Shown one piece after another: positions 43,067 to 55,875 of a DNA stretch of 64,000 nucleotides. The stretch is from the IMG/VR virus record IMGVR_UViG_3300042465_006787. One strand, written 5' to 3'. The notes beneath the pieces were generated by a model. The model saw only the letters and a program-made list of their open reading frames with translations, was not told the DNA's origin and made no database searches. Position 1 is the first letter of the stretch; every line of letters starts with the position of its first letter. A program made the position numbers and the translations under genes. Origin of the DNA: an uncultured virus (IMG/VR IMGVR_UViG_3300042465_006787) (Duplodnaviria > Heunggongvirae > Uroviricota > Caudoviricetes).

Positions 43067-43216
43067 ATGTCATGTACAAGTTGTAAAAAGAAAGAATTAA
43101 AAAGACAGTTTGATGAGGTTAGCGAATATACCACAAAATCAGCTATTTGGTTCCTCGTTATCTGGTCAGCATTTGCTGTTTATGGGATTTATTCTTTAAT
43201 TACCAAATTCATATGA
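43067..43216 (+). CDS. 49-aa CxxC + transmembrane peptide (not in ORF track)
   Basis: MSCTSCKKK...AIWFLVIWSAFAVYGIYSLITKFI; TGA overlaps the next ATG. Confidence 0.65.
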   Translation: MSCTSCKKKELKRQFDEVSEYTTKSAIWFLVIWSAFAVYGIYSLITKFI

Positions 43217-43860
43217 AGCAGAATTTTAAGTATTTCATAATCTTATATCTAAATGGTGTAAAGAAGAAAGTTCTACATAAGTGTGCAAAACGTAGCACTA
43301 TTATGGACTACTGGTCAGAGTATAAAACGCAAAGAAAACCAACATACTGTGCTGAAATTAGAGGTAGAAAGCGTACTAAGTTAAATTTTGAATTGTTCCT
43401 AGTTTACCCCATCAATAGATGGTCAACTACTGATAAAGCATATAAAAAAGACGAACTAGGTAGAAATATCGAGGTGTCCTTGGATGATCCTAAGTTTAGG
43501 GTTAAAGAAATAATACCTTGGTGGGAAGAAGAACGTATCTATGATTTTGAACAAAAAAAACACATCCGTTATCACGAAATGATGTTCAAACTTAATAGGA
43601 TTGAGGAGATTTGTCAGATATTCACATTGAACAATAAAATATTCGTTCAAATAGAAAATGATGTCAAAGTGTTTGGCAACAAAAATCTACATGATACTGA
43701 TAGATTATTTGAATTAGTAAAAAATGATTTACATAAGAAGAAAAGAAGGAACTTTCTTTTCATTAAAGATATCACAACCTATCAAAGAAAACTACTCTAT
43801 GATTTTTTAATCACGAAGGGTTTTAGTAGGCATGAATTGTTTAGGCATTATTCATATTAA
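43213..43860 (+). CDS. Hypothetical basic protein
   Basis: Start moved to ATG 43213 (ATGA coupling). Confidence 0.65.
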   Translation: MKQNFKYFIILYLNGVKKKVLHKCAKRSTIMDYWSEYKTQRKPTYCAEIRGRKRTKLNFELFLVYPINRWSTTDKAYKKDELGRNIEVSLDDPKFRVKEIIPWWEEERIYDFEQKKHIRYHEMMFKLNRIEEICQIFTLNNKIFVQIENDVKVFGNKNLHDTDRLFELVKNDLHKKKRRNFLFIKDITTYQRKLLYDFLITKGFSRHELFRHYSY

Positions 43861-52783: not shown

Positions 52784-53425
52784 TTACCTTCTTGTTTTTA
52801 TCTTAAAATAAACACCGCCGTCAACATATGGGGTAAATTTTCCGGTCGTCCCGTCTAAGATTCTGTTTGCCACACCAATACCTAGATGATATATCTTATC
52901 TTCTTTTGTTTTATACATTATACCAGTGCCAAGATGTGAAACTACATCAGGTTTACTTAAACTACCATTAAATCCAAAGTACATTTGACCTTTCTTAGGT
53001 TCTTTTGTGTAAACTGTGTCTTTAATAATCATTTGTTTAATGTCGCTAATAAACTTTCTGTTAACAATACTATTTTTAGATATTGTATCCATAATCGTAA
53101 TAGTCCCAACATTGTTAGGTAATGTTAGCACATCTTTATGTTGGATTTTCGCAAAATAAATCTTTAAAATTTCTGTTGTGTCAACTGGTGTTAATACCTG
53201 TACCTCTACTCTTTTTTCAACCTCTACCTCAACTGGAACCTCAATTTCAATTTCTACCTCAATTAAACTATCCACTGATATTGTATCGTGTACGGCATAA
53301 CCTATTGAATCAACCCTTGTGATTGTTCTATTTGGTAAATGCCCGCCTGGATTGTAAAAAGCCAAGAATAATAAAATTATTAAAATAACAATAATAAAAT
53401 TCTTGGCTGTTAAATGTTTTTTCAT
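52784..53425 (-). CDS. Membrane-anchored exported protein
   Basis: N-terminal TM; several D-[ST]-hydrophobic motifs; beta-strand-rich C-terminus. Confidence 0.6.
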   Translation of the reverse strand: MKKHLTAKNFIIVILIILLFLAFYNPGGHLPNRTITRVDSIGYAVHDTISVDSLIEVEIEIEVPVEVEVEKRVEVQVLTPVDTTEILKIYFAKIQHKDVLTLPNNVGTITIMDTISKNSIVNRKFISDIKQMIIKDTVYTKEPKKGQMYFGFNGSLSKPDVVSHLGTGIMYKTKEDKIYHLGIGVANRILDGTTGKFTPYVDGGVYFKIKTRR

Positions 53426-53852: not shown

Positions 53853-54114
53853 CTGTGTTGTTTTTAATAATAGTTATGTTTTTTGTCACGTTGTCGATAT
53901 CTTTATCAACATTAACAATGTGATTATCAACTTTTTCGATTTGATTGTCTATTTCTTTGTTTGCAATATAAACCGAATCAATTTCCTTTTGTAAGGATTC
54001 AATTTTAGCGTTATAACCCGCAACGTCAGTTTTTATACCTTGATTTTGAAATATGGTATAGCCAGCCAAACAAGCAATCAAAACTAATAGGATGTTTGTT
54101 TTATCAATCTTCAT
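53779..54114 (-). CDS. TM-anchored coiled-coil protein (i-spanin-like)
   Basis: Start moved to ATG 54114; N-terminal TM, coiled coil, 74-nt overlap with the next gene. Confidence 0.5.
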   Translation of the reverse strand: MKIDKTNILLVLIACLAGYTIFQNQGIKTDVAGYNAKIESLQKEIDSVYIANKEIDNQIEKVDNHIVNVDKDIDNVTKNITIIKNNTDEKVNSITTIGNVELEQLFANRYN

Positions 54115-54136
54115 ATTATCTGTTTTATTATAAATA

Positions 54137-54160
54137 CAAAGAGGTCGCAAAAGCGACCTC
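54137..54160 (-). terminator. Intrinsic terminator
   Basis: GAGGTCGC-TTTT-GCGACCTC followed by TTTG. Confidence 0.7.
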
Positions 54161-54185
54161 AGAGTTAGACCTTGTGATTAGTTTA

Positions 54186-55025
54186 TTAGTATTTTGTGCC
54201 ACATTGTGGGCAGAACTTATATGTGTCTTTTTTCCTTCTACTGCCACATTCAGTGCAATATGTAGCCAAATCATCCATTGTTACCAATTGAGTTGATTTG
54301 GGTTTTATTTTCCACCAATTTGTGTTAGACGCCCAACTATTGAAAGATGTACTATCGTATGTAAAGGATTGATTAGAATTGGAACCCTTTTCAACTCTAC
54401 CTGTTTCAACCTGTCTTTTAGATTTTTTAACCTTATCGGGGTTGTTTAAGAATGTATTTGAGGTACTAAACGTTCCACTTGTTAAAGATGAATTGGAAGT
54501 ATAAACCGCATTTGTTCCCGTTGTTGTAATACTAGTAGGATTAAATGTATTCATACCTAAAGTATTATGTGTAGTGTAGGTAAATGGTGTCCCCGTGTTG
54601 TTTATCCAACCTGGGTTAGATATCGTTAACGTGCCTGAATTACCGCTATAATATGTCGGTGGAGGCGTTTCGTTATAGAACTTAATAACCACATCACCAT
54701 TATCAGCAATTGCTTCTTGTACTTCTAAATTATCACCATTTACAACATATGTTTCAAATAAAAACTTCTTTGCCTCATCAAGATATCTTTCGAGGAAAAC
54801 GCGTTCACCTGGACGAATTATAATACCATTACCAACGGCATTACCATTCATCTCAATTTTTGCTAAAACTTTATTGTGTGTTGGATTAAAAAGTTCGATT
54901 TCGAACTCATCACCGTTATTAAGATATACGGTGTCAATGTGCTGTTTTAATCTTTGTTTACCTTTAGTAATGAAAGATTGTGGTACAGCAAGACCAGTTG
55001 TGTTAACTGAAATTCTTCTGTTCAT
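54186..55025 (-). CDS. Hypothetical protein with C-terminal zinc ribbon
   Basis: Start moved to ATG 55025; CTECG...CPQCG; low-complexity T/N/S linker. Confidence 0.7.
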   Translation of the reverse strand: MNRRISVNTTGLAVPQSFITKGKQRLKQHIDTVYLNNGDEFEIELFNPTHNKVLAKIEMNGNAVGNGIIIRPGERVFLERYLDEAKKFLFETYVVNGDNLEVQEAIADNGDVVIKFYNETPPPTYYSGNSGTLTISNPGWINNTGTPFTYTTHNTLGMNTFNPTSITTTGTNAVYTSNSSLTSGTFSTSNTFLNNPDKVKKSKRQVETGRVEKGSNSNQSFTYDSTSFNSWASNTNWWKIKPKSTQLVTMDDLATYCTECGSRRKKDTYKFCPQCGTKY

Positions 55026-55142
55026 TTCCTTATATTTTTTTGTATTTGAACCCGAATTCGTTGGTATCAATTCCAACTCAAATGCCTCTGGGACACTTCG
55101 ACTTCAACCACAAGGTCTAGAAATAAATATAAGGGAATAAAT

Positions 55143-55173
55143 AAAAAAAGGGAAGTTAAAAACTTCCCTTTTT
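55143..55173. terminator. Intrinsic (potentially bidirectional) terminator after clpP
   Basis: AAAAAGGGAAGTT-AAA-AACTTCCCTTTTT. Confidence 0.8.
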
Positions 55174-55203
55174 GTTGAAACCAAAATGTTGAATAAATTA
55201 ACC

Positions 55204-55875
55204 CTATTTTCTTTTGACAACTTCGTCAATAATACCGTATGCTAAAGCATCTTCAGAACTCAACCAGAGATCCCTAGACGCATCTTGTTTAACTTGTTCA
55301 CCTGTTTTACCACAATAACCACCCAATAGGTCAAATAATGTGTTATTTAATTTATCCCACTCAACCATATCAATCTTAGCATCTTGAATGTTACCTCTAA
55401 AACCTCCAGATGATTGGTGTAACATTGTTCTTGAGAATCTCAATGAACCGCGTTTTCCCTTCGTTCCTGCCCCTAAAAGGATTGAACCCATAGATGCAGC
55501 CATTCCAGTATTAATCGTCCTAATATCGGACTTAATGTAATCCATAACATCAACCATTGATAAACCAGATTTAACGCTTCCGCCTGGGGTATCGATATGC
55601 ATAGTTATGTCATTAGTATCTAAACTGTCCAAGAACATTAACTGTGCTTGAGTTATAACCGACATATTATCATTAACCTCACCGGCCACCCAAATAATTC
55701 TTTCCATCATTAAACGTGAAAACACATCCATTTGTGTAACGTTCAGTTGTCTTTCCTCTAAGACGTATGGAGTTAAACTACCCTCAATATTTTTTTGATG
55801 ATAATGCATGTTTAAGGAACTAATTCCGCGGTCTTTTGCGTACAAACCGAAATCTTTGTAATCTTTGGGTGTCAT
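55204..55875 (-). CDS. clpP: ATP-dependent Clp protease proteolytic subunit
   Basis: DVFSRLMMERII, TPGGSV, GMAASMG (catalytic Ser), MLHQ (His), RDLW (Asp), YGIID. Confidence 0.95.
   Translation of the reverse strand: MTPKDYKDFGLYAKDRGISSLNMHYHQKNIEGSLTPYVLEERQLNVTQMDVFSRLMMERIIWVAGEVNDNMSVITQAQLMFLDSLDTNDITMHIDTPGGSVKSGLSMVDVMDYIKSDIRTINTGMAASMGSILLGAGTKGKRGSLRFSRTMLHQSSGGFRGNIQDAKIDMVEWDKLNNTLFDLLGGYCGKTGEQVKQDASRDLWLSSEDALAYGIIDEVVKRK

Follow-up and report, generated by a model that had tools for sequence, protein, structure and literature searches.

A conserved 5′/3′-UTR pairing with a probable switch function around a zinc-ribbon protein gene of large phages

The gene, its neighbourhood and its transcript ends

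The stretch of DNA analysed (64,000 nucleotides from an uncultured member of the Caudoviricetes, hereafter the window) carries on its minus strand an ORF encoding a protein of 279 aa (54186..55025). The start codon is the ATG at 55025; a longer frame opening with TTG was rejected. The protein is soluble-looking and consists of a split immunoglobulin-like beta sandwich, a low-complexity insert, which is disordered in the structural model, and a C-terminal C4 zinc ribbon (residues 256–278; codons 54192..54260, minus strand). The zinc ribbon matched PF13240 (E 1.7e-4, below the curated cut-off), a domain also matched by 55 of 60 relatives, and its four Cys residues are invariant among the homologues; many basic residues of the protein are conserved as well. 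The family comprises 2378 clusters (90%) and 2416 representatives (50%). In the Atlas it is nearly all viral and its matches are unnamed viral clusters, the leads below 0.9 being clusters bearing SHOCT and DUF7918. GenBank holds 22 records, including Lak and other huge phages, and one homologous locus (L001) encodes a protein identical to that of the window. A Foldseek search against the PDB returned nothing at E 0.001, and a PHROGs search with the window protein returned no match. Comparison by VIA-align gave a best Z of 6.9, with the zinc ribbon barely covered; many immunoglobulin-like folds tied, so no family was assigned. A GTDB scan with one pattern found two MAG contigs only, and distant bacterial relatives may therefore exist.

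The neighbouring genes in the window encode a sigma-70-like factor, ClpP (Pfam PF00574; clpP at 55204-55875, upstream of the studied gene), an exonuclease, SbcC/D-like proteins and an amidase. The window probably belongs to a bS21-type jumbo phage with a likely Bacteroidota host. The bS21 gene was present in all three near-complete relatives (310–324-kb records); in the record nearest to the window, a fragment of 27% completeness, it was not seen. Since those three encode bS21, as do the freshwater Bacteroidetes phages in the portion of the report at hand (PMC9723584), the relatives of the window were placed near that group; that portion makes no mention of the studied gene or its RNA. A Shine–Dalgarno (SD)-like motif at −16 to −4 precedes 3 of 69 window genes, as expected for a host of the Bacteroidota type. 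The records G002, G003 and G004 each contain a T4 Rnl1-type RNA ligase together with bS21.

Two complementary arms flank the ORF. The minus strand reads TAGACCTTGTGGTTG at 55119-55105 (the 5′ arm), 3 nt after the TATTTAT at 55129-55123, and TAATCACAAGGTCTA at 54180-54166 (the 3′ arm), which begins 5 nt past the stop codon (54188-54186) and is followed by a terminator-like hairpin with a T-rich tail (54131..54160; hairpin 54160-54141), all as in the original prediction. The predicted helix between the arms, here termed P1, was likewise recovered: it comprises 15 bp, with 11 Watson–Crick pairs, a G-U, two Watson–Crick pairs and a G-U. Its duplex energy is −22.4 kcal/mol, and in the full-length fold 14 pairs had probabilities of 0.88–1.0 and the final pair one of 0.67. 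Scored as a contiguous helix, P1 reached −20.4, the best of 68 window ORFs (median −5.5), the next being an 11-bp helix of −13.0 kcal/mol flanking 43213-43860 on the plus strand. Of 5000 random window pairs spaced by about 1 kb, 32 reached −15, and their minimum equalled the value of the locus itself.

We infer the promoter and the 5′ end of the mRNA from a promoter-like TATATTTAT motif (55123..55131, minus strand), a putative −10 region; no good −35 box was found upstream of it and no sigma-70 site was called. Farther upstream lies the terminator-like hairpin of clpP (55145..55173, minus strand). Among homologous loci that have both arms, one of the promoter-like motifs lay directly upstream of the 5′ arm in 161 of 195, and 143 of the 195 had a hairpin plus U tract no more than 60 nt past the 3′ arm. 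A TATANT ended 9–11 nt ahead of the CC core of the arm in 118 of 138 loci scored. TATTTAT is probably a phage promoter element. It is scarcer than expected in the whole window (32 compared to 53), and it occurs within 30 nt of several window start codons.

In one clade, a tRNA-Ser was found upstream of the arm in all eight loci scanned. The tRNA-Ser(TGA) lies a few bases from the 5′ arm, abutting it, in L371 (1019-1105), L374 (1004-1089) and L377 (1011-1096), and farther upstream in the other five. Because the arm abuts the tRNA 3′ end, the 5′ end of the mRNA may be made by processing in this clade. All 24 RNA runs contained fewer than 0.2 of the sequence words. RNA-library contigs of relatives covered the leader or its 3′ part in three of four runs and left the 3′ arm uncovered; in two runs they extended into the promoter-like sequence, which may reflect DNA carry-over.

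Covariation of the end-to-end helix across homologous loci

Of 524 loci fetched, 515 contained the gene; distinct loci with complete flanks numbered 237. Duplex folding over wide windows failed to separate loci from controls, so P1 was scored as a contiguous helix between an upstream and a post-stop window, with ORF-internal windows as controls. The result showed that the covarying inverted repeats predicted around homologues do exist: a helix of −10 kcal/mol or better was present in 204 of 237 loci compared to 97 of 1312 controls, and one of −15 kcal/mol in 174 loci compared to 3 controls. The 204 include two loci judged to be chance matches (L203 and L291) and two in which the script took another register (L314 and L353), and the 33 misses include four (L035, L074, L321 and L522) with visible arms that are interrupted or just below the cut. 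Between clades the arm letters have been replaced wholesale, as in the 5′ arm/3′ arm pairs GACCUUGUG/CACAAGGUC, GAAACCUUGUU/AACAAGGUUUC, GGAACCUCAC/GUGAGGUUCC, GCCUCGUGUGG/CCACACGAGGU, GAGCCUCGCUCU/AGAGCGAGGCUC and GGGUGCCUUA/UAAGGCACCC; these compensatory changes in distant clades uphold the proposed closed-loop helix at the RNA level. Among eight GenBank huge-phage loci from outside this collection, P1 with new sequences was found in three (L527, L532 and L533) and was missing from five, three Lak phages among them.

Across 111 distinct helices, each taken with 4 nt on either side, isolated non-Watson–Crick positions were G-U in 51 cases and A-C in 11, counted over related loci with a helix search that permitted G-U. 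This excess favours RNA pairing over DNA repeats, in keeping with the earlier argument that the wobbles reflect selection on the RNA, and it bears on the idea that the arms are inverted repeats acting at the DNA level, as parts of a mobile or invertible cassette. Such an idea would suit the finding that the sequence beyond the arms differs among relatives, with clpP upstream of the gene in just 8 of 28 close loci. However, both the promoter-like motif and the terminator are external to the arms, domains of transposases or recombinases were not found, the element is single-copy per genome, and the covariation of the start-region box described below would have no meaning at the DNA level. We regard a cassette as extremely improbable. 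Terminal inverted repeats of IS elements and MITEs are strand-symmetric, accompany a transposase and occur in several copies; they were rejected on the G-U excess, the lack of a transposase domain and the single copy.

The length of P1 ranges from about 9 to 20 bp across loci, with no fixed end geometry. This variation, together with the terminator hairpin downstream of the arm, speaks against P1 being a processing or circularisation stem, at which RNase III or another nuclease would trim the transcript or a ligase would join its ends. P1 does juxtapose the mRNA ends, the icaR 5′/3′ duplex is cut by RNase III in the portion of the report at hand (PMC3868564), and all three near-complete relatives encode the Rnl1-type ligase. 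RNA contigs of relatives, whose coverage excludes the 3′ arm, showed no 3′-to-5′ joint. RtcB was found in none of four records, and both the box and the lineages that lack the 3′ arm would be left unexplained; the proposal is very unlikely.

The post-stop arm was absent from 31 of 237 loci. No distal arm was found in these loci up to 400 nt past the stop codon, with the exception of L464, whose 3′ arm (12 bp, −16.8 kcal/mol) sits within the coding sequence, 46 nt before the stop codon. On a quick tree of 98 rows, arm absence needed six changes, at least three of them forced by strong branches. End pairing is thus not universal, given these 31 loci and the clade that has tRNA-Ser instead of a promoter. 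In six loci without the post-stop arm (L203, L416, L455, L456, L471 and L475), a local 5′ hairpin hides the anti-start strand; leaders of the L174, L296 and L412 type have a local 5′ hairpin plus a 3′ arm. The coding end varies too. Homologues at L038, L106, L142, L314, L352 and L356 carry a C-terminal extension of 50–80 aa beyond the zinc ribbon, often ending AIVID, and their 3′ arm sits after the new stop codon. In L532 and L533 a helical tail, possibly SHOCT by its Atlas cluster label, replaces the zinc ribbon and P1 is retained. In L342 the frame downstream of the leader ends at 129 aa, ahead of the insert and the zinc ribbon.

The junction leader and a second partner of the 5′ arm

Between the 5′ arm and the gene lies a leader (55046..55107, minus strand) made up of P2 (55107-55097 with 55056-55046, one G-G mismatch), P3 (55096-55092 with 55086-55082) and P4 (55077-55073 with 55064-55060). 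The two leader hairpins noticed earlier (AAGTGTC/GGCATTT and GTTGG/CCAAC) proved to be real: they correspond to P3 and P4, two helices of a three-way junction. When 25 leaders were aligned blind to structure, 94.5% of cells were paired and both sides had changed in 18 of 20 pairs; none of 500 shuffles scored as high, and no slid register came near the covariation of the true one. Covariation among these aligned leaders shows that the leader folds into a conserved three-way junction. An unforced descriptor, applied to 218 leaders, gave junction lengths of 0/4/3 in 159, with strands U-N-G-A and R-A-W; this class was outside the eight commonest among 44 control matches from 120 control windows. 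In the window the corresponding strands are J3/4, UUGA (55078..55081, minus strand), and J4/2, GAA (55057..55059, minus strand), and J2/3 is 0 nt.

No Rfam family matched the window at gathering score. To E 10, 20 weak matches were found in 54100-55200, mostly to the upstream terminator, and TPP was not among them; identity with a TPP riboswitch was rejected on the lack of an Rfam match and of a TPP pocket. A hammerhead ribozyme has a CUGANGA strand, an invariant G-A-A strand and a cleavage-site base. It was rejected, as J3/4 is 4 nt, J2/3 is 0 nt, J4/2 begins with A in 62 of 159 leaders and Rfam gave no match.

The junction bears the sequence signature of a k-junction, and a kinked geometry is predicted from it. 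In the portion of the report at hand, k-junctions of TPP riboswitches and rRNA have three helices, two of them flush, and invariant adenines at 1n and 2b (PMC4005666). The leader junction is likewise three-way with its third and C helices flush, and with positions numbered here from the text of that report, J3/4 supplies L2, L3, G1b and A2b by sequence and J4/2 supplies 2n, A1n and one extra base. Among the 159 leaders of the 0/4/3 class, A occurred at 1n and 2b in all 159 and G at 1b in 158, with G (97) or A (62) at 2n, and the same bases were invariant in the structure-blind alignment. The shared features are a loop followed by G-A leading into the third helix and a G or A at 2n. Unlike the k-junctions described there, this leader, known from its sequence, has no TPP pocket and no Rfam match, its 3b-3n pair is mostly G-C rather than C-G, and an extra base follows A1n.

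A second conserved partner of the 5′ arm was recognised, namely a box of 4–8 nt over the start region. In the window, CCUUGUG of the arm (55115-55109, minus strand) is complementary to UAUAAGG (55034-55028, minus strand), forming a putative 7-bp helix, P1alt; the box lies 2 nt before the AUG, a spacing unusable for SD pairing. The arm and the box change together between clades, as in CCUC/GAGG, CUCGU/ACGAG, GCCUG/CAGGU, UCUGG/CCAGA, GUGGUGC/GCACUAU, UCUUAU/AUAAGA, UUAACU/AGUUAA and ACAUAG/CUAUGU. When arms and boxes were swapped among eight hand-picked clades, with the arm starts of three arm-less clades placed by eye, the cognate set was the best of 40320 orders. With arms set by 3′ pairing alone (196 loci, the L314 artefact included; 10 clusters, of which three hold 188 loci; 200 draws), the median p was below 1/2000 and the worst 0.02, while control windows within the ORF gave 0.83 and 0.90. 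At one arm position, four kinds of pair with the box were seen (U-A 35, G-C 3, C-G 1 and A-U 1; 40 of 45 paired), in a comparison whose CC/GG anchor is fixed by selection. On MAFFT columns, where deep clades were misaligned at P1alt, 80.5% of cells were paired with three double-change pairs, and 170 of 500 shuffles scored as high. Weak or broken boxes were seen in L118, L321 and L495.

The box helix used the same arm strand as P1 in 182 of the 194 loci having one. Its end lay between −11 and +5, and AUG bases were included in 20 of 194. The L174 box pairs with arm bases that are not copied in the 3′ arm, so the box is more than a repeat of that arm. An identity as a Shine–Dalgarno sequence was rejected: the AAGG of the box ends 1–4 nt ahead of the AUG in 95 of 160 loci, which is too near, it is replaced when the arm changes, and SD-like motifs are as rare in the window as noted above. 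Covariation shows that the 5′ arm has two mutually exclusive partners, with a weak P1alt of 4–8 bp set against a strong P1 of 9–20 bp. Since a promoter-side CCTTATATTT is complementary to the box (55118-55159 with 55003-55044), RNA reading through from clpP could close the start region too. Of 144 loci with a TAAGG box, 47 had CCTTAT in the promoter zone, compared to none of 93 others, a difference confounded by clade.

The reach of the leader bears on whether it works on its own, as a protein- or ligand-responsive switch in which P1alt would be the OFF helix and the 3′ arm would be secondary, resetting or locking it. A covariance model from the 25 leaders, applied to 39 other loci, found the junction in 32 at E < 0.002, many of them arm-less, so that it is wider spread than the 3′ arm; the leader was single-copy in four of five records, and of 62 viral matches to its pattern, 61 stood ahead of the studied gene, which was recognised by profile in 60 and truncated by the contig end in one. 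A self-contained switch would also agree with the k-junction signature and with the basic residues kept by the protein. On the other hand, conservation of the kind expected of a ligand pocket was absent outside the junction in the 25 leaders, none of four related records had an L7Ae-family gene, and most lineages keep the 3′ arm. That the leader acts alone is considered unlikely. The model missed L529, L530, L531, L532, L534 and L477 (L477 is without a leader), gave L533 an E of 0.4 and returned no match in Lak-C1; because it misses those phages, a junction in Lak is predicted from minimum-energy folds alone. A weak match to the leader model (E 0.09) was also seen at 53357-53411 in the window, a 26-nt inverted repeat near the start of the ORF at 52784-53425.

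Gating of translation, end protection and known systems

In 187 short nascent constructs P1alt formed with a median probability of 0.68–0.70, which fell to 0 once the 3′ arm was added. Upon this addition the box opened in 145 of 187 at 20 °C and in 142 of 187 at 37 °C, and it closed in two to three. In 190 linker constructs, in which the linker was allowed to pair, the median energy for opening −14 to +6 was 3.99 for nascent RNA compared to 4.62 with the 3′ arm, the arm making opening easier in 59 and harder in 78. Among 12 native mRNAs, arm-to-start pairing was already near zero in seven when the RNA was cut at the stop codon, and the 3′ arm raised accessibility by 0.05 or more in three only. 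In the window mRNA, the P1alt probability was 0.02–0.48 for transcripts as long as 140 nt and 0 for those of 180 nt or more, and the minimum-energy fold of the leader was a competing extension of P2. In several clades the arm was located in a hairpin loop. In the nearest-neighbour model P1alt is therefore an early, metastable helix, and equilibrium folding of long transcripts, as modelled, does not by itself support gating. A lasting OFF state would need kinetic trapping, tertiary stabilisation by the junction, pseudoknots or a bound protein, all of which lie outside the folding model.

Because compensating mutations keep both partners of the arm, completion of the message may switch translation on. 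In the relay that we propose, P1alt would shut the junction domain over the start region at the leader-only stage and hold translation down; the 3′ arm, transcribed about 900 nt later, would capture the 5′ arm and free the start region, and both ends of the mRNA would come to lie buried within P1. A message that lost its 3′ end would fall back into the closed state. Such a relay, combining gating with end protection and tying translation to a finished, intact message, is a reading to which we give not quite an even chance. More speculatively, the junction, with its predicted kink, or a protein bound there may stabilise P1alt enough to last; that protein might be the zinc-ribbon product of the gene itself, which would make the leader autoregulatory. 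In its boldest version, which is held tentatively and with more doubt, the locus would be a full-length licensing switch whose 3′ UTR serves in cis as an anti-anti-start strand, with translation uncoupled from transcription and restricted to uncut messages, and whose stand-alone k-junction may bind the zinc-ribbon protein. In the portions of the reports at hand, low structure around the start favours initiation in Bacteroidetes (PMC7797042), and pairing of distant sequence with start regions is effective in vivo across hundreds of bases (PMC12697547).

End protection without any gating is a rather unlikely reading, though a serious one. The 5′ arm would then always be paired, with the box as placeholder and later with the 3′ arm, against 5′-end-dependent attack or leader cleavage. 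It is consistent with the weak equilibrium effect on start-region accessibility, with an arm that begins at the predicted 5′ end, or right at the tRNA-Ser 3′ end in L371, L374 and L377, and with a precedent in the Bacillus subtilis hbs mRNA, where a helix of about 14 bp between the 5′ UTR and the region just ahead of the terminator encloses the ORF and restricts RNase Y, as far as the report at hand describes it (PMC5737220). However, a placeholder could sit anywhere, yet the box helix ends at −11 to +5 and takes in AUG bases in 20 of 194 loci; in addition, most arm-less loci, judged by eye, retain the arm–box helix. Among the functions offered in the original prediction, gating of translation and protection of the ends are the best fit; that prediction had overlooked the arm's second partner and the union of the hairpins in one junction.

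The analogy to type I toxin mRNAs that had been drawn found no support. Such an mRNA would be inert through end pairing until 3′ trimming, and the Helicobacter aapA3 and hok-type messages do share ingredients with the phage locus, since a co-transcriptional structure at the start region gives way to a 5′–3′ long-distance helix, a relay from local to long-range structure on mRNA completion, in the portion of the report at hand (PMC6733600). By that account the finished aapA3 mRNA is inert, its helix hiding the SD, and 3′ trimming activates it, whereas P1 is predicted to do the opposite: it leaves the start region free, sequesters the anti-start strand and accompanied opening of the box in the 145 constructs mentioned above. 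The ORF, moreover, encodes 279 aa with a beta sandwich and a zinc ribbon, not a peptide of 30 codons or any other small toxin. A toxin-like mRNA is thus highly improbable.

As described in the same portions of their reports, two further systems resemble the locus in part. The 3′ UTR of Staphylococcus aureus icaR pairs in cis across the ORF with the 5′ region and represses translation (PMC3868564); it targets the SD, whereas the phage 3′ arm targets a repressing strand. The hbs mRNA has complementary 5′-UTR and pre-terminator 3′-UTR arms of nearly the same length as here (about 14 compared to 15 bp), but its 5′ arm is embedded in a long leader, where it overlaps a site of RNase Y, whereas the phage arm is at the predicted 5′ end. 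The portion of the hbs report at hand describes no alternative start-region helix and no conserved junction (PMC5737220), both of which the phage locus has, and, unlike hbs as described there, the phage pairing covaries over hundreds of loci. No description of the element, or of a 3′ arm activating its own mRNA, was found in literature available without subscription. Four motif strings were absent from six supplementary files of PMC10690425; its files 1, 2 and 4 may hold the leader.

Taken together, the 5′/3′-UTR pairing of the phage locus is real and conserved, and is a new form of such pairing that probably has a switch function. The element is a structured RNA family outside Rfam, specific to one uncharacterised gene of many large phages, and its leader is a candidate k-junction beyond riboswitches and rRNA. 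Its natural variants, with the arm present, within the coding sequence or absent, form a ready mutant series. The cis 5′/3′ pairings compared here, as described in the reports at hand, repress translation (icaR and aapA3) or tune cleavage (hbs); if the relay is true, the phage message would instead be activated by its own 3′ end, in reversal of this pattern, and would provide a portable way to delay translation until the transcript is complete. The element also bears on how start sites may be regulated in hosts that initiate without Shine–Dalgarno pairing.
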